From a virus, in IMG/VR virus record IMGVR_UViG_3300027710_000017, positions 1-64,000 of that record: a stretch of 64,000 nt of DNA. One strand, given 5' to 3'. The position numbers and the translations under genes were made by a program. The notes below the pieces were generated by a model. The model was not told the origin of the DNA. It made no database searches and was given only the letters and a program-made list of their open reading frames with translations. The stretch's first letter is position 1; the number at the start of each line of letters is the position of its first letter. Shown in pieces: positions 1-6,577 of the stretch.

Positions 1-756
1 GCCACCCATAAAGACAAGGTTATTATAATCTGGTAGAAGTCTTGACCTAACGTCGTGCATAAAGTCAGTTAGCCTTAGTTCATACACTAGCTGAACTGCA
101 GCGGCTATATCAAATTTTGCTTGCTCGTCAATTTCTTCTTCCCAGTCGTGGATTCCTTTGTGGTAATTGTACTTCTGCTGTTTAGTATTTGGGAAATACT
201 GTAGAACTTTTTTATAGTACCTGTTTGCATCTCCGTATCCAGCCATGCCCATTAAAATATATTCGTGCTCATTTGGCTTTAATCCAATCAAGTCTGTGAA
301 GGCAGTATAGAATAATCCGAAGCTAAGTGGGTACTTAATCTCTTTAATTAGTTTTATATCTTCCCCGTCACCAGACCAGACGGTAGAAGTAGAAAATTCT
401 CCGATTGCATCTAGGACTACTATCGCTGCTTTATTAAATGGGCTTGTGTAATATCCAGCGCAAGCATGTGAGTAGTGGTGCTTAAAAGCTTTGTCGTGTC
501 TATGCCTTGGCTTCCAGTCAGCCCTACCTCCATTCAGCAATAACCTTAGTTGCTTTAGCCTTGGCTTTTCGTAGTAAGCTATGGCATCTGGATCTCCAAA
601 CTTTAGGCCATCACCCCAAAGGGCTTTATTTGTATACCAGTCATTTTTTTCTTTGCTATATCTTTCAGCATGACCCGCAAACAAGATTGTATTATTGTCA
701 ATAACGGCTAGGGCCGCATCGTGAGATGTTTCATTAAATCCAAAAATTCTCAACAT
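1..756 (-). CDS. Carbamoyltransferase (NodU/CmcH/TobZ family), N-terminal part; runs off the window
   Basis: Not in the ORF track. Translated by hand from ATG at 756: MLRIFGFNETSHDAALAVID...GHAERYSKEKND...HHYSHACAGYYTSPF...VLDAIGE...YILMGMAGYG...NLVFMGG. The start overlaps the upstream stop (TAATG). Confidence 0.9.
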   Translation of the reverse strand, partial: MLRIFGFNETSHDAALAVIDNNTILFAGHAERYSKEKNDWYTNKALWGDGLKFGDPDAIAYYEKPRLKQLRLLLNGGRADWKPRHRHDKAFKHHYSHACAGYYTSPFNKAAIVVLDAIGEFSTSTVWSGDGEDIKLIKEIKYPLSFGLFYTAFTDLIGLKPNEHEYILMGMAGYGDANRYYKKVLQYFPNTKQQKYNYHKGIHDWEEEIDEQAKFDIAAAVQLVYELRLTDFMHDVRSRLLPDYNNLVFMGG

Positions 757-1358
757 TACTCGCTAGCGTATGGGTGCTGTTGTGCTGGCCAAATGCCTCT
801 GTCTACTTCTGGATGGAATTCTGGATCTAGGTATTTGGGAACGCTTGTATGCATATACAAAGCCGTATGCCTTGCCCCAGATGTAACTGTTGTAATTCCA
901 TGTATATATTCTGATCCTGCGCTTGGGAAAAATACAGCAGAGTACTGCCTTGGCTTATACTCAAAATCTTGGTTTGGGAAATATATAATACCACCTTCAT
1001 AATCACTAGGATTATTTAGATAAATTATTGTACTCCACTCAATAAACGGCTCTGGATCCTGAGCATCCATATGAAGATCTCCCTTTGTTCCTGGATTCCA
1101 CCATGAGCCAAAAGCTTTAAATACATAAATAGGATTTACAAACCCATTTAATTCTTTATGAACATCGTTAGATTTGTGACCGTACTTAATTAACAAATCC
1201 ATTACTCTCTTGTTGTATGGAAATGCTGTTCCTCCATACCTTTCAGAGTAGTAGTCTGGGTATGGGTTTCTCTCAGATGGATTCTTTTGCTCTTGAATAA
1301 GAGTCTCAGCATCCTCTGGTGTTATAAAATTGTCAATGATAGTAATTCTGTGTGTCAT
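756..1358 (-). CDS. 2OG-Fe(II) oxygenase, prolyl-4-hydroxylase-like
   Basis: HxD (LHMDAQ), IIYLN..DYEGG, distal His and Arg (YIHGITTVTSGARH). Confidence 0.88.
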   Translation of the reverse strand: MTHRITIIDNFITPEDAETLIQEQKNPSERNPYPDYYSERYGGTAFPYNKRVMDLLIKYGHKSNDVHKELNGFVNPIYVFKAFGSWWNPGTKGDLHMDAQDPEPFIEWSTIIYLNNPSDYEGGIIYFPNQDFEYKPRQYSAVFFPSAGSEYIHGITTVTSGARHTALYMHTSVPKYLDPEFHPEVDRGIWPAQQHPYASE

Positions 1359-1370
1359 CTTTTCTCCTTT

Positions 1371-2180
1371 TTAATATATTGACTTTACGTTAGAAATAAA
1401 CTTTCTAGAGTCTATATCGTTTATCTTAAGACTATTTGGATTGTAAGAGACATCATCATTTGCATAAGGCAATGGCAAGATTGGGCACTTATCCAAACCA
1501 ATGTACCTCCAAAAACTGCTAGATATGATGTCAAGGACCTTGCCATATTTATGCTCTATAGAAAATGTTTTATACTTATTTTCTAAAGTTCTTTGGTTTA
1601 AGTCTGAACCAAGGCTGCTAGGAGCATTATAAACAGTATAGCCTTTCTCAAAACATCTAAAAGATAATAGCTCGTCCTCGCCAAGATACTTAACATATAT
1701 GGGATAGCTGACTGGCTTTAGCGTTCTGGTCTTTGAAAAAATTAAATTCTTACTTATGATGTTCGTTTTACTAAAGTCATCTGACTTTTCAGACTCTGAA
1801 ATTATTGTAAACAGATCTCTGTTTTTAAAGTACTGTTTTCCTACGCCAGAAACAACAGTCTTATTATCTTTAATAAAATCTATTAAGATATTATCCCAGC
1901 CATCCTTAACCATAATGTCATCTGACAATACTAAAAAGTATTCTGAAGAGCTTTCGTGAATTGTTTTTGACTTGTATTCGCAAGGGCTATTCAGGTAGTC
2001 CCAAAATATATGGTTATAAGATATTTGTGGGCTATCAAACATTTCTTTTCTATCTAAGGGGTGTTGATCGTAAACGTGTATATAAATATCATTACTGGTT
2101 GATGAAATAAGGTTGTCAACAACTTCTTTTAAGAATTTATTCTTGTATGAATAAATAACGGCATCAATCGTTGTCGTCAT
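1371..2180 (-). CDS. GT-A fold (GT2-like) glycosyltransferase
   Basis: N-terminal AVIYSYKN..LKEVVDNL; YFLVLSDD (DxD-like) followed by GWD; late GEDELLS. Confidence 0.65.
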   Translation of the reverse strand: MTTTIDAVIYSYKNKFLKEVVDNLISSTSNDIYIHVYDQHPLDRKEMFDSPQISYNHIFWDYLNSPCEYKSKTIHESSSEYFLVLSDDIMVKDGWDNILIDFIKDNKTVVSGVGKQYFKNRDLFTIISESEKSDDFSKTNIISKNLIFSKTRTLKPVSYPIYVKYLGEDELLSFRCFEKGYTVYNAPSSLGSDLNQRTLENKYKTFSIEHKYGKVLDIISSSFWRYIGLDKCPILPLPYANDDVSYNPNSLKINDIDSRKFISNVKSIY

Positions 2181-2931
2181 GGCTTACCTCTGGTGATTTT
2201 TTATTAAATATACCAAAATTCTTTTTTCTCCAGGCAAATTTTTTATAATATCCATAGAGCATAGATCGCCTATTTTCAGCCATGAGCTCGTGTTTATCTA
2301 GCTCTTCGTCCGTATCTATAACCTTTGACTCCCAGTCTTCTCTTTTGAATGGGATTATTTGAAATATTGGCGTACCTTTGGGAATTACACCTCTAAAATT
2401 TCTCTTTAGAAAAAATGCAGTAAAGACTGGAAGGCCCCAAATATCCGACTCTACAATTCCAGACAGGGTATAAAACGGAAGGTCGTGCCTGTTCATTGGT
2501 TGTGTAACCAGTACTGAGTATCCTGGGGGAGTTTCGTAATACCAGTTCATTCTCCAGCCATAGTGAATTGGGTGGCAGTTATCTGGAACTGGAACCTCTA
2601 TAGTTGGCCTAGTGTCTACAATCATGACGTCACCTTTCCAGGACAAAACTGGAACTCCGTTTTCATCTAAGTCTACATAAAGGTCATCCTCTAAGACATA
2701 CTGGTATCCAGCTGTTAGCGCATCAAAGAAAGGCATACACATTTTTGTAGCCACCTGAGCTCCATCAGTTCCTAAAGAGTTCTGAGGGTTTAGCGTCTTG
2801 TCACTATTAGACTTTTCAAACTTTGCTAAGCTTCTATACCATTCTGGGACATGCTTTGTCGCTGGCTGTGGGGCAGTCAGCCTGTCTCCAGGCATTCTAA
2901 AGGATGGAATAAAATTAATTATGTTTGACAT
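2164..2931 (-). CDS. DUF6065-like phage protein, paralogue 1
   Basis: PEWY, KMCMPFFDALTAGY, TPPGYSVLVTQP, IPKGTPIFQIIPFKREDW. Confidence 0.65.
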   Translation of the reverse strand: MSNIINFIPSFRMPGDRLTAPQPATKHVPEWYRSLAKFEKSNSDKTLNPQNSLGTDGAQVATKMCMPFFDALTAGYQYVLEDDLYVDLDENGVPVLSWKGDVMIVDTRPTIEVPVPDNCHPIHYGWRMNWYYETPPGYSVLVTQPMNRHDLPFYTLSGIVESDIWGLPVFTAFFLKRNFRGVIPKGTPIFQIIPFKREDWESKVIDTDEELDKHELMAENRRSMLYGYYKKFAWRKKNFGIFNKKSPEVSHDDND

Positions 2932-3653
2932 TAATTATATTCTTTCTTTGATCTAAAGATAAGTTTGTATCCATTTGCAAACATGCTACGTAGCTTAAGT
3001 CTCTGGTTTGATAAAGCTTTCTTTGAGTCTTCTGCCTCTGCAATCTCGGACTCCCAGCTATCTCTCTTGATTGGAATGACCTGTACTAATGGAGTACCAC
3101 GCTTAATTATACCCTTAAATCCCTTTTCTACAATAAAAGATAGGTGGCCTTCTGTAATAAACTTGTCAGAGTCGACTAAAGCTGGTATTGCAGTTAGTGG
3201 ATAGGTGTCTCTGTGAACTGGATTTAAGAATAGTGTGCTATATCCAGGATCTGTCTTCATATACCAGAACGGCATCACCCTGAACAATGTTTCATGTTGA
3301 CGACTTTTGTCTATTGGGTATTCATCATATTGTTGTTTTTCATGGGAAGAAAACATGTCTGCCTGGAATTGCTTAATTGCAATTGGTATAGACCATGTTA
3401 ACTTTTCTGGATCAGTGGCGTCTAGATAAACGTCGCATGGCATAGTGATCATATAGCCAGCTGTCATTATATCAAATACTGGCATACACCTTTTAACAGT
3501 CGAAGTAGAGTAGCCTTTTGGAAGAGTCTCGGAATCATTTACTGTACCCTTTTGCTTTTTGTACCAATCTGGAACAAACTTTACTGCTGGCTCTGGCGGA
3601 TCTGTATATGCTGAGGTACTTTCACTATGTTGATAAAATTTAATCTTTGGCAT
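2931..3653 (-). CDS. DUF6065-like phage protein, paralogue 2
   Basis: PDWY, KRCMPVFDIMTAGY, TDPGYSTLFLNP, IKRGTPLVQVIPIKRDSW; collinear with 2164..2931. Confidence 0.65.
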   Translation of the reverse strand: MPKIKFYQHSESTSAYTDPPEPAVKFVPDWYKKQKGTVNDSETLPKGYSTSTVKRCMPVFDIMTAGYMITMPCDVYLDATDPEKLTWSIPIAIKQFQADMFSSHEKQQYDEYPIDKSRQHETLFRVMPFWYMKTDPGYSTLFLNPVHRDTYPLTAIPALVDSDKFITEGHLSFIVEKGFKGIIKRGTPLVQVIPIKRDSWESEIAEAEDSKKALSNQRLKLRSMFANGYKLIFRSKKEYN

Positions 3654-4323
3654 AAAACTCCTTAATTCCTAAGTCTATTATAGCATTCCTAGGAATTATC
3701 ATATCGTAAACAGCAGAGGGCTTTTTAGCCTTTCCAAACTCATGGTCTGCCATGTGGCTGCCACTTTTCCTAAATCTAAAAGGTATCATGAATGGCTCTA
3801 GGTATTTTGTTTCTTCAGGAATTTTAACACAATTCCTTGTAGTTTCAAATACTTTAAATGCAGACTCTTCTTCTGGAACTACAAATCTAACTTCACAGCC
3901 CGAATCAATTATCCAAGGAGTATACGCCACAAACATATCATCAAAACACTCTGAGTCCAAATCTGCAACATAGGACGATTTGTAGAATTGTCGCAACCAC
4001 GGTCTATCTAGAAACTTTCTTTCTTTTTTATTTACTAGAATAAAAACTTCTGCATGGCTATATTGCCTCAGTCTAATAAAATTATCATCAATGCTAATTA
4101 GTTTTGGTGCTGGATAAAGAGCTTCTGCGTATTTGTTAATTGGTTTTATAATGCTGCTTTTATATTTTTCTGATGATGAAATTTTTTGAAAATTTAACCA
4201 CTTCTCTGGAACTCTAGACTTAAAGGAAATTTCTACAAAGTTTGGATCATAAGATGAATTCCATATGCCAAAATCATAGTCAGTGTTATTAAGTATGTCT
4301 GGCTTATCCACGATTACCAGCAA
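3640..4323 (-). CDS. Hypothetical protein, possibly a diverged third member of the adjacent family
   Basis: 227-aa ORF overlapping both neighbours; YTPWII and AKKPSAVYDMIIP weakly echo the paralogue motifs. Confidence 0.6.
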   Translation of the reverse strand: MLVIVDKPDILNNTDYDFGIWNSSYDPNFVEISFKSRVPEKWLNFQKISSSEKYKSSIIKPINKYAEALYPAPKLISIDDNFIRLRQYSHAEVFILVNKKERKFLDRPWLRQFYKSSYVADLDSECFDDMFVAYTPWIIDSGCEVRFVVPEEESAFKVFETTRNCVKIPEETKYLEPFMIPFRFRKSGSHMADHEFGKAKKPSAVYDMIIPRNAIIDLGIKEFYAKD

Positions 4324-5017
4324 TCAAGATAGAGATAAAGTCTGACTGATCTATATTCATATCAAAGATTTTACTAATAATTTTTGATACGCTGCCCCTA
4401 GCTATCGTTTGATTTGACATGCTAACATTTATACCAATTCCAACTTGACAATACTTGCCAAAAACAGTTTCAATATCTTTTAAAATTTCTAGAACCTTGG
4501 AGTTGTCATCTCTCCTATTTTTAATTAAGAATAAGTAGGGCATCTTACTTTCTTTAACCCAAACGAGCCTTTCTATCCGAATGTCTGAAGACTCTCCTGG
4601 AATATCATCTTCGAATATAAATGATTTTCCACCTATCCCAAGTATAGCAGGCAGGGCTGAAATAATCGATGGCCCTGGAATTACTTCTACTGGCAATCCT
4701 TCCTCATGAGCAATAACAATTATTTTGCCGCCTGGGTCTGCTATGCTAGCCATCCCGTCATCTGGACATATCAAAACATCTTTATTGCTTTTAAGTGCCT
4801 CAATAACTTTTAAAATTATTGGATCTTCGAGCTCTTCATCCATTGGGGCATAATACTCAATAACAGATCCAGACGGAACAATGGCCAGGTCTTTGCAAAG
4901 ATTGTCAAACAGATGCTTATTTTCTACTAAGACAATGTCAGAATCTCTTATCGCAGACATCATCCTGGGGCCAACGTCTAGCCTATTACCAATGTCTACT
5001 CCACCAACAATTAACAT
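4304..5017 (-). CDS. RsmI-like (tetrapyrrole methylase family) SAM-dependent methyltransferase
   Basis: IGNRLDVGPR, SDIVLVEN, DDGMASIADPG and VEVIPGPS match the RsmI motifs PIGNLxD, DAGxPxISDPG and PIPGPSA; SD GAAGGAAGG. Confidence 0.8.
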   Translation of the reverse strand: MLIVGGVDIGNRLDVGPRMMSAIRDSDIVLVENKHLFDNLCKDLAIVPSGSVIEYYAPMDEELEDPIILKVIEALKSNKDVLICPDDGMASIADPGGKIIVIAHEEGLPVEVIPGPSIISALPAILGIGGKSFIFEDDIPGESSDIRIERLVWVKESKMPYLFLIKNRRDDNSKVLEILKDIETVFGKYCQVGIGINVSMSNQTIARGSVSKIISKIFDMNIDQSDFISILIAGNRG

Positions 5018-5032: not shown

Positions 5033-5104
5033 AGCCTCCTGTCAGGATTGAACTGACGACCTACGCATTACAAGTGCGTTGCTCTACCACTGAGCTAAAG
5101 AGGC
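5033..5104 (-). tRNA. tRNA-Thr(UGU), CCA not encoded
   Basis: GCCTCTTTAGCTCAGTGGTAGAGC...ACGCA-CTTGTAA-TGCGT...GTTCAATC...GGAGGCT. Confidence 0.95.
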
Positions 5105-5105
5105 G

Positions 5106-5178
5106 TACTCCCAACGGGATTCGAACCCGTGCTACCGCCGTGAAAGGGCGACGTCCTAGGCCACTAGACGATGAGAGC
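5106..5178 (-). tRNA. tRNA-Glu(UUC)
   Basis: GCTCTCATCGTCTAGTGGCCTAGGAC, TCGCC-CTTTCAC-GGCGG, GGTTCGAATCC. Confidence 0.95.
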
Positions 5179-5182
5179 AGTG

Positions 5183-5256
5183 CGACCCTGACCAGACTTG
5201 AACTGGCGACCTCCTCCGTGACAGGGAGGCGCTCTAACCAACTGAGCTACAGGGCC
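5183..5256 (-). tRNA. tRNA-Asp(GUC)
   Basis: GGCCCTGTAGCTCAGTTGGTTAGAGC, CCTCC-CTGTCAC-GGAGG, GTTCAAGT. Confidence 0.95.
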
Positions 5257-5311
5257 TGGTGTCCACTTTTATCCCTTCTCTCAGCGGGAGTGGTGTAGAC
5301 TAAACCATTAG
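5257..5311 (-). ncRNA. Putative structured pseudoknot RNA, copy A, between tRNA-Gly and tRNA-Asp
   Basis: CUAA UGGU UUA GUCUAC ACCA C UCCC-loop-GGGA UAAAA GUGGAC ACCA; covaries with copy B. Confidence 0.6.
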
Positions 5312-5382
5312 AGCGAATGGAGAGAATCGAACTCTCACCGTCAGTTTGGAAGACTGAGGCACTACCACTATGCAACATTCGC
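5312..5382 (-). tRNA. tRNA-Gly(UCC)
   Basis: GCGAATG acceptor, TCAGT-CTTCCAA-ACTGA, GTTCGATT, CATTCGCT. Confidence 0.95.
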
Positions 5383-5435
5383 ATTGCCCATTTTTATCCT
5401 TATACCCTTAGGAGTGGTATGGGCCACACCATTAG
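5383..5435 (-). ncRNA. Putative structured pseudoknot RNA, copy B, between tRNA-Asn and tRNA-Gly
   Basis: CUAA UGGU GUG GCCCAU ACCA C UCCU-loop-AGGA UAAAA AUGGGC AAU. Confidence 0.6.
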
Positions 5436-5507
5436 CTCCCCTCCGTGGATTCGAACCACGAACCGACGAGTTAACAGCTCGTTGCTCTGCCATTGAGCTA
5501 GAGAGGA
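5436..5507 (-). tRNA. tRNA-Asn(GUU)
   Basis: TCCTCTCTAGCTCAATGGCAGAGC, ACGAG-CTGTTAA-CTCGT, GGTTCGAATCC. Confidence 0.95.
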
Positions 5508-5539
5508 TTGTGCCCGTTAAGGATGGGCTTCCATTTTAT

Positions 5540-6577
5540 TTAATTATTATATACTGCGTCAAGCTGGTTTGCAAGATCTCTAAGAGTCTTTGCTAGCTCG
5601 GATGCAGCTGTTCTGTCTAGAGTCTCAGTAGAGGCAGCGTTGGTACGAATCTTTTGAATCAAAGATGTCGAACTGTCTAGTGATCCTAGCAAAAGTTGTC
5701 TTGAGGATACAGTGGATGTTGTTGCTGGTGTTTCAGCCACTACCCCCACAACCTTAGAGACTGTAGGCTCTGGAGCTTTTGCTTTAACTGTAGGAACTGA
5801 AGCTACTGCAGCAGTCACCGTTGCTACTGATGTTGTAAAGCCAACCATAAATGGGTTAGGTCCTGTAGTAGTAATCGCAAAAGAGTCATGCAATCCCTGA
5901 ATAGCAGTTCTAATAGACTTCAAGCTCTTGCTAGAGTATGTATTGCCAGAAAGAACCAGGTCAGACCGCTTAGTACTGCCTGCAAACTGAGTAGAGCCAA
6001 CTGCAACAGAGTTTGAAATACAAGCTGGATAGTCAATTCTATCTCCGCTTCCATAGTTTCCAGCTGAGGCATAAAAATCAATCTTGGATGCCTGCAGTGC
6101 AGCAATTGCACTAACAACATTGTTATGGGTTGTTGAAATACTTACCCCTGGAGATGACGGCGTACAGCTTGAACCGTTTCCAGCATTGTAAGAAAATGAC
6201 ACTGCTTTGATATTATACTTAGCTGAATTAGCAATGACCCAATTAAGGGCATTAGATAGCTGAATTCCAGTAATTACGCCAGTCTTAGTCGTTCCTGCTT
6301 CAATCAAAACCAACGGAACTTCTGCGTTATTTGATCTAGCAATATCTGCCATAACTGTGCCATGATTAAATGCCTTAAACTGTGAAGTGCTTCTTGGCGT
6401 TGGTGTTGAGCTACACTCTGAAGGTGCAGCTAGACAAATCTCCGTCACTTCTCCACTAATTAGAGTGGATTCAAAATTTACATCGATAATTGCAACGGCC
6501 CCAGCAGTGTCTGCCTGAGCTGGAACAATTCCAACAAGTGCAAGGATTGTGGCAAATGCGATAGCTAGTTTCTTCAT
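5540..6577 (-). CDS. Secreted subtilisin-like (S8) serine peptidase
   Basis: Signal peptide MKKLAIAFATILALVGIVPAQA; Asp (VAIID), His (NHGTVMA), oxyanion Asn (ASAGN), Ser (FTTSVAT). Confidence 0.75.
   Translation of the reverse strand: MKKLAIAFATILALVGIVPAQADTAGAVAIIDVNFESTLISGEVTEICLAAPSECSSTPTPRSTSQFKAFNHGTVMADIARSNNAEVPLVLIEAGTTKTGVITGIQLSNALNWVIANSAKYNIKAVSFSYNAGNGSSCTPSSPGVSISTTHNNVVSAIAALQASKIDFYASAGNYGSGDRIDYPACISNSVAVGSTQFAGSTKRSDLVLSGNTYSSKSLKSIRTAIQGLHDSFAITTTGPNPFMVGFTTSVATVTAAVASVPTVKAKAPEPTVSKVVGVVAETPATTSTVSSRQLLLGSLDSSTSLIQKIRTNAASTETLDRTAASELAKTLRDLANQLDAVYNN
5546..5574 (-). promoter_or_regulatory. Sigma70-type promoter for the tRNA cluster
   Basis: TTGCAA-17 nt-TATAAT in the last codons of the peptidase gene, about 40 nt upstream of tRNA-Asn. 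Confidence 0.65.

Follow-up and report, generated by a model that had tools for sequence, protein, structure and literature searches.

A predicted family of small structured RNAs fused to the 3' ends of CCA-less tRNA genes in freshwater phage tRNA arrays

Two spacers of a phage tRNA array, designated copy A and copy B, are identified from their sequences as paralogous members of an undescribed RNA family of about 50 nt. The family is uncatalogued, and it is real in that about 90 relatives keep the same fold. Its members appear to form the 3' trailers that directly follow CCA-less tRNA genes in arrays of freshwater, actinophage-like siphoviruses. It is becoming clear that phage tRNA arrays commonly contain structured RNAs, few of which have a known job; the element described here is small, sharply conserved, backed by covariation and fused base for base to tRNA 3' ends.

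The tRNA array and its two trailer elements

The window analysed is a stretch of 64,000 nucleotides, positions 1 to 64,000 of the IMG/VR virus record IMGVR_UViG_3300027710_000017. Five tRNA genes were identified in the window by ARAGORN and Rfam, all on the minus strand. In minus-strand order, the array and its surroundings are as follows.

5546-5574, minus strand: promoter-like site, a consensus match only (10 of 12 matches), which would place the start of the array transcript near 5539
5436-5507, minus strand: tRNA-Asn (GTT), no encoded CCA, discriminator at 5436; ARAGORN, and Rfam tRNA at 64 bits
5383-5435, minus strand: copy B, a 53-nt putative pseudoknot RNA forming a tRNA trailer; scored by model R1 at 72.8 bits (E 4e-14)
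5312-5382, minus strand: tRNA-Gly (TCC), no encoded CCA; ARAGORN and Rfam
5257-5311, minus strand: copy A, a 55-nt putative pseudoknot RNA forming a tRNA trailer; scored by model R1 at 63.1 bits (E 8e-12)
5183-5256, minus strand: tRNA-Asp (GTC); ARAGORN and Rfam
5106-5178, minus strand: tRNA-Glu (TTC); ARAGORN and Rfam
5033-5104, minus strand: tRNA-Thr (TGT); ARAGORN and Rfam

CCA is encoded in none of the five tRNA genes. The genes for tRNA-Asp, tRNA-Glu and tRNA-Thr are tightly packed, with spacers of 1-4 nt and no pseudoknot element. Both copies begin with the base that follows a tRNA discriminator, and beyond the paired end of the element a gap of 3 nt (copy B) or 4 nt (copy A) is left to the next tRNA, as an earlier note on this DNA had described. 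The sequences of the two spacers and the base changes counted between them in that note were also found to be correct: the 6-bp helix carries two double changes and one change from U-G to C-G, and the hairpin one double change. Chance is excluded: a core pattern of 16 bases is present at two places in the window, where 0.23 occurrences would be expected. The parts of the two copies are listed below, where S1 is the UGGU/RCCA pairing, S2 the outer 6-bp helix and P4 the inner 4-bp hairpin.

Copy B:
5432-5435, minus strand: single-stranded CUAA; C-U-R-A is invariant in 45 distinct sequences
5428-5431, minus strand: S1 5' strand, UGGU, invariant; would pair with 5415-5418
5419-5424, minus strand: S2 5' strand, partner 5386-5391; six of six pairs covary
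5415-5418, minus strand: S1 3' strand, ACCA (RCCA in the family), invariant save for A to G at the first base, which keeps a U-G pair
5414, minus strand: invariant C
5397-5413, minus strand: hairpin P4, stem 5410-5413 with 5397-5400 (three of four pairs covary), variable loop 5401-5409
5392-5396, minus strand: A-rich strand, UAAAA, invariant
5386-5391, minus strand: S2 3' strand, followed by the tail AAU at 5383-5385

Copy A:
5308-5311, minus strand: CUAA
5304-5307, minus strand: S1 5' strand, UGGU
5295-5300, minus strand: S2 5' strand, partner 5261-5266, one G-U pair included
5291-5294, minus strand: S1 3' strand, ACCA
5290, minus strand: invariant C
5272-5289, minus strand: hairpin P4, stem 5286-5289 with 5272-5275
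5267-5271, minus strand: A-rich strand
5261-5266, minus strand: S2 3' strand, followed by the tail ACCA at 5257-5260

The minimum-free-energy structure of copy A is an alternative fold in which UGGU is paired to the ACCA at the 3' end. It was rejected as a family feature because the terminal ACCA is not conserved.

The portal protein of this phage is 47% identical to those of Streptomyces siphophages, and its DNA was found in runs belonging to 17 studies, among them metagenomes of lake water and of the subsurface. The portal likeness and these occurrences point to a freshwater, actinophage-like lineage, an assignment that does not extend to the host itself.

A C directly follows the discriminator behind every CCA-less phage tRNA compared (window 5033-5507 and all trailers), regardless of what comes next; it may be an encoded C74 or reflect a cleavage-site preference of a host endonuclease. 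On the 3' side of the array, an operon occupies 1-5017 of the window on the minus strand, and no terminator-like site on that strand was found between the two. The first operon gene encodes a methyltransferase of the TP_methylase family (RsmI-like) and starts 15 nt past tRNA-Thr. It is followed, in order, by two proteins without a family match, a protein that resembles DUF6065 at a score below the cut-off, a protein with a weak match to glycosyltransferases, a further protein without a family match and a carbamoyltransferase.

Family members, fold and comparison with known RNAs

Viral contigs were scanned twice with patterns free of tRNA sequence and chance matches were sorted out, which gave 54 further instances. 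A model, R1, was built from 38 family sequences. Over 577 kb of IMG/VR contigs, R1 matched 60 full-length and 2 truncated elements in 57 sources (45 distinct sequences) and, outside family members, nothing but one marginal leader match. A covariance-model search for homologues had been proposed in the earlier note as a check, and the relatives recovered in this way keep both the arrangement and the covariation. A metagenome scan added 28 members, bringing the family to about 90, all in uncultured phages. BLAST searches with both element types against 50,697 records of isolated phages returned only chance matches of 23-25 nt, and a loose pattern applied to cellular genome contigs gave no true member among the matches listed (at least 120). 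The window's own 93-kb record holds two copies only; five other records (three complete, 103-116 kb) hold one or two each, in the tRNA array only.

When Rfam was searched at gathering and at permissive thresholds (E up to 10, 196-nt query), only tRNA passed and no match to the element was obtained, so that its uncatalogued status, for which the same search had been suggested, holds. The highest-scoring model other than tRNA, DUF2815, reached 17.3 bits (E 0.66), below its gathering score of 41.2. None of the Rfam models for HDV, twister, pistol, hatchet, hammerhead, preQ1-I/II/III and SAM-II matches the element.

In the 45 distinct sequences, S2 shows double changes at all six pairs, with 99.6% of cells pairing, and P4 shows double changes at three of its four pairs. 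All pairs taken together, 99.8% of cells pair, compared with 30-46% when the partners are slid, and the covariation score was reached by none of 500 shuffles. RNAalifold returned the same two helices from a structure-naive MAFFT alignment. S2 and P4 are thus proven as nested helices. The RNA lies on the tRNA strand, since 13 G-U cells of the alignment would become A-C mismatches if read on the opposite strand. The element is therefore a covarying structured RNA on the tRNA strand that is absent from Rfam, in agreement with the candidate new class of non-coding RNA put forward in the earlier note.

About 20 positions are invariant, namely C-U-R-A, UGGU, RCCA, the lone C, both pairs that close P4, and U-A-A-A. 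In 45 of 45 sequences, the strand that leads from the hairpin to the last helix reads U-A-A-A(-A). These invariant positions, together with free compensatory change in nine pairs, argue for purifying selection on the fold and against a functionless element, whether a decayed tRNA remnant or a selfish repeat spreading within arrays. The latter explanation would suit the optional occurrence of the element and the resemblance of UAAUGGU to a D-loop stretch of neighbouring tRNA-Gly genes, but tRNA models do not match the element and there are only one or two copies per genome. It is disfavoured, with a slim chance at best of being correct.

The earlier note had described covarying pseudoknots with an invariant first helix. 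Covariation holds for the helix between the loop and the 3' end (S2) and for the hairpin, and not for the closing helix S1, in which three pairs never vary and the fourth changes from U-A to U-G only (four distinct sequences). No other S1 variants were found in viral-contig or metagenome scans in which S1 was left free (about 90 members). Because UGGU and RCCA are invariant, S1, and hence the pseudoknot, is without covariation support. Pairing of the two would create a classical H-type pseudoknot, a plausible and geometrically sound model that is unproven and rests on invariant bases. In the modelled knot, a loop 1 of 1-3 nt crosses the 6-bp stem, the stems are separated by 0 nt, and the A-rich strand crosses the 4-bp stem, where it would be expected to occupy the minor groove of S1. 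In several subfamilies, loop 1 and the A-rich strand are both shorter by one base, a joint loss that hints at one compact fold. Such a fold would gather U-R-A, the last S1 pair, the lone C, the P4 closing pairs and the first U of the A-rich strand at the junction of tRNA and element.

This architecture recalls the preQ1-I/II and SAM-II aptamers, which are likewise small, with a short loop 1 and an A-rich strand placed for the minor groove of stem 1; preQ1-II also has a hairpin inserted in loop 3. A ligand-binding aptamer or riboswitch-like sensor (for example of preQ1), formed by an H-type pseudoknot with an A-rich third loop, would be in keeping with upstream tRNAs that are often Asn or Asp, which are queuosine substrates. 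It is nevertheless very unlikely. No Rfam riboswitch matches the element even at E up to 10, the element sits between tRNAs with no expression platform, and S2 and S1 abut directly, leaving no unpaired base in the place where preQ1-I keeps its ligand-pairing C. The queuosine argument, which had been raised in the earlier note, is itself weak because Gly or Met tRNA can also stand upstream.

Theta ribozymes are minimal HDV-like ribozymes that adjoin CCA-less phage tRNAs (Kienbeck et al. 2024, PMC10879173). They have in common with the element a length of about 50 nt, their occurrence in Caudoviricetes, a start 0-1 nt from the 3' end of a CCA-less tRNA and, if the pseudoknot model of the element holds, two helices that cross, the last strand being preceded by an inserted hairpin. 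The theta/HDV-like definition comprises G1 of P1 at the cleavage site, a catalytic C that comes first in J4/2, and P3/L3 with P1.1 (PMC10879173). In place of G1 at the cut, the element has unpaired C-U-R-A and its first helix begins at base 5; in place of P3/L3/P1.1, the S2 5' strand is followed directly (0 nt) by the S1 3' strand; and the strand that corresponds to J4/2 starts with U rather than the catalytic C. The settings differ as well, since theta ribozymes are from the gut and the element is from lake water and actinophage-like phages. The element was thus correctly separated from theta/HDV-like ribozymes on the absence of P3/L3, and G1 and the J4/2 C are also missing in the 45 sequences.

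There is a close to negligible chance that the element has diverged from one of the known families, be it theta/HDV-like, twister, pistol, hammerhead, preQ1-II or the coremin-type exonuclease blockers. The modelled crossing helices with the inserted hairpin resemble HDV P1/P2/P4, and C-U-A-A and the succession hairpin-AUAAA-helix are reminiscent of twister, but the defining HDV/theta features are missing and no such Rfam model matches at E up to 10 with a 196-nt query. The helix order of hammerhead, pistol and twister does not fit when compared by eye. Coremin-type exonuclease-resistant RNA has a 4-bp hairpin with a YGAD (YGNNAD) loop, then a spacer of 8-10 nt and a second hairpin. The hp1 loop YGAD and the 8-10 nt spacer are missing from the element, whose first hairpin loop is 7-9 nt long and pairs downstream, and whose spacer to the second hairpin is 1 nt.

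The pseudoknotted acceptor arms of plant-virus tRNA-like structures and the pseudoknot substrates of RNase P (PMC12710915) share with the element the H-type pseudoknot modelled here and, after the last strand, a short tail whose first base is A. In copy A the tail is ACCA. However, the ACCA tail is not conserved in the family, the conserved RCCA is internal and paired, and there are no T-loop or anticodon mimics. Tails include ACCA, ACUA, AUUA, AAU, GUU and AAG, among others, and in L161, the closest relative and a near-identical one, AAG stands in place of the ACCA of copy A. The stem-plus-ACCA end of copy A, once suggested to be acceptor-like, is therefore a feature of that copy and not of the family, where tails read A-N-N-A or AAU. 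The conserved 3' (N)CCA after the last helix that marks an aminoacylatable tRNA-like end was not found among the family tails.

Position behind tRNAs and proposed role

All 56 instances found without tRNA sequence in the pattern abut a tRNA 3' end where the contig reaches far enough (upstream tRNA Asn in 39, Asp in 9, Gly in 5 and Met in 1), and there the first base of the element follows the discriminator of a CCA-less tRNA. Trailers of this tRNA-Asn begin with C whether or not an element is present; because of this the leading C is probably tRNA position 74, with the core of the element starting at U. The 3' side is loose, usually with 2-5 variable bases before the next tRNA. A hairpin lies 3' of the element in L097/L167, and L155/L176, L192 and L194 have no downstream tRNA. 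Release as a free 54-nt RNA through processing of both flanking tRNAs, as envisaged in the earlier note, is not general because several members are without a tRNA downstream.

The same tRNA-Asn 3' end was found in 55 viral contigs, 13 of which carry the element. In the other 42, tRNA-Asn is followed by a 3-nt spacer and tRNA-Asp, by other conserved spacers or by promoters. The element is dispensable. A comparison of gene content between 57 element-bearing and 42 element-free loci gave no RNA-processing partner; a homologue of SNase and an upstream secreted protein are enriched at element loci, which looks like a phylogenetic effect.

Our tentative preference is that the element serves as cis-acting punctuation at the tRNA 3' cut, possibly by self-cleavage. 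The element would be co-transcribed with the array tRNAs, act in cis and fix an endonucleolytic cut at the junction of discriminator and C74, which is needed before CCA can be added to the upstream tRNA. Exonucleases would be unable to trim away a knotted trailer of 53 nt, so that an endonucleolytic cut at the junction would be required. Punctuation is favoured because of this predicted block to trimming and because the invariant bases cluster at the junction in the pseudoknot model. About half of the weight given to this role falls on an element that would cut itself off and so match theta ribozymes in function, though built on another core. The remainder falls on a junction presented to host RNase Z or RNase E, or on a cap that would protect the downstream fragment from 5' exonuclease. 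RNase P acting at the next tRNA would then leave the element as a stable stub.

Punctuation is supported by the location of all 56 instances at a tRNA 3' end wherever the contig extends far enough, by the looseness of the 3' side and by the lack of CCA in the array tRNAs, and it has a precedent in theta ribozymes, which hold the same place behind CCA-less phage tRNAs (PMC10879173). Against it, the element is optional (13 of 55) and other contigs manage with a 3-nt spacer to the next tRNA; unrelated RNAs, manA included, are found in the same slots, which suits a passenger gene; S1 is without covariation; and no known ribozyme core fits. The genes that accompany theta ribozymes are also absent, as is RtcB. 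PF01743 was not found in six element-bearing records (three complete), RtcB/PF01139 and PF09414 were not found in five, and PF02467 was not found in the window's own record. A CCA-adding enzyme and RNA ligase are absent from the six records and RtcB from the five. Public RNA libraries searched over the stretch gave only tRNA look-alikes, with no cover on the elements. One RNA-library contig of 112 nt joins the element of a relative to tRNA-Gly, and shows neither transcription nor ends.

A bolder proposal, which we consider unlikely, is that the element represents a new class of small self-cleaving ribozyme that cuts at its own 5' edge and so makes the 3' end of CCA-less phage tRNAs. The invariant UGGU:RCCA helix, the lone invariant C and the A-rich strand would then form the catalytic core. 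The position is the one at which the sole characterised precedent, the theta ribozymes, is catalytic, and a second, independently evolved solution would stand beside them if the proposal were true. If the element is not a ribozyme, it would be a compact nuclease-resistant or protein-binding module of freshwater phages that are abundant, and expression systems based on tRNA arrays could take it up as a candidate part.

Alternatively, the array may be an expression and release platform for a passenger small RNA, with the freed pseudoknot acting in trans. This is possible rather than probable. The tRNA 3' endonuclease would release the RNA upstream, and RNase P or trimming downstream. As a mimic of an acceptor end, it might act on RNase P, on a defence enzyme that targets CCA ends or on a phage protein as a decoy or sponge. 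With R-C-C-A behind it, the S2 strand resembles an acceptor 3' strand with discriminator and CCA. GGU:CCA pairing is used by loop L15 of RNase P and by T-boxes to hold tRNA 3' ends, and by analogy UGGU:RCCA could be the same pairing. That the sequence is so strongly invariant would fit an RNA recognised by a macromolecule. The stable RNAs of the T4 tRNA cluster and the 3' spacer of the E. coli leuZ operon are precedents for a passenger RNA. GOLLD is placed in tRNA arrays by Morgado 2020, as cited in PMC9569102, and pseudoknots with a 3' RCCA are RNase P substrates (PMC12710915).

Several features do not fit a passenger. No partner protein family is enriched near the element, RCCA is internal and not a 3' end, the 3' end of the RNA is undefined where no tRNA follows, and neither exact fusion to the tRNA end nor conserved junction bases would be needed. 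A trans-acting RNA nevertheless stays close behind punctuation because phages that share this tRNA carry the element in the manner of an accessory gene and because manA, a second motif of 53 nt and an RNA of about 170 nt occupy the same slots. The manA RNAs found here, GOLLD of Mycobacterium arrays and stable RNAs 1 and 2 of T4 all take a tRNA slot in an array and are presumed to be freed by tRNA processing; the element is much smaller, is unrelated to them in sequence and fold, and is fused to the tRNA end without a spacer.

Other RNAs in these arrays

The tRNA arrays of these phages hold several uncatalogued RNA families side by side, together with manA RNAs (RF01745, 62-76 bits, maximum 75.8), which lie between tRNA-Gly and tRNA-Asp in related freshwater phages.

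L175, 4904-5088: manA RNA (RF01745)
L155, 657-838, minus strand: manA RNA (RF01745)
L160, 2800-2980: manA RNA (RF01745)

The manA motif has been described as a possible 5'-UTR riboswitch of marine cyanophages, and given that description a location between tRNAs is an unexpected setting. A spacer type of 90-112 nt (L157, L160, L342) has the same first seven bases as the manA-bearing spacers.

A second uncatalogued spacer RNA of 48-57 nt was found mostly between tRNA-Gly and tRNA-Asp (L043:645-701, and also L065, L113, L171, L358, L371, L411 and L427). It has an invariant core of about 27 nt and a closing stem of 9-10 bp that covaries between contigs, and it has no match in Rfam. A conserved spacer RNA of about 170 nt fills the Asp-to-Thr spacers (164-172 nt) of L071, L157, L163, L175 and L139 and follows tRNA-Asn in L327; its members share sequence blocks at either end, and there is no Rfam match at E up to 0.1. 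A tRNA-like gene of 69 nt (L160:2308-2376 and L148:1974-2042) scores 46.7 bits with the Rfam tRNA model and is given an abnormal two-base anticodon by ARAGORN. In L160 it lies directly 3' of the element.

The leader of tRNA-Asn was also considered.

5508-5537, minus strand: tRNA-Asn leader, possible mini version of the element without the hairpin, uncertain

No third full copy was detected in this leader, where R1 gave no match at E up to 1. In the window, in L165 and in L154/L155, the sequence 5' of tRNA-Asn can fold into a small hairpin or pseudoknot that lacks the inserted hairpin. The form in L165 (3758-3792, R1 E 0.55) is clearer, with UGG...CCA and a 6-bp second stem kept. When the window type is compared with the L154/L155 type, the leader stem shows covariation, and in L154/L155 the structure takes up the whole leader behind a good promoter.
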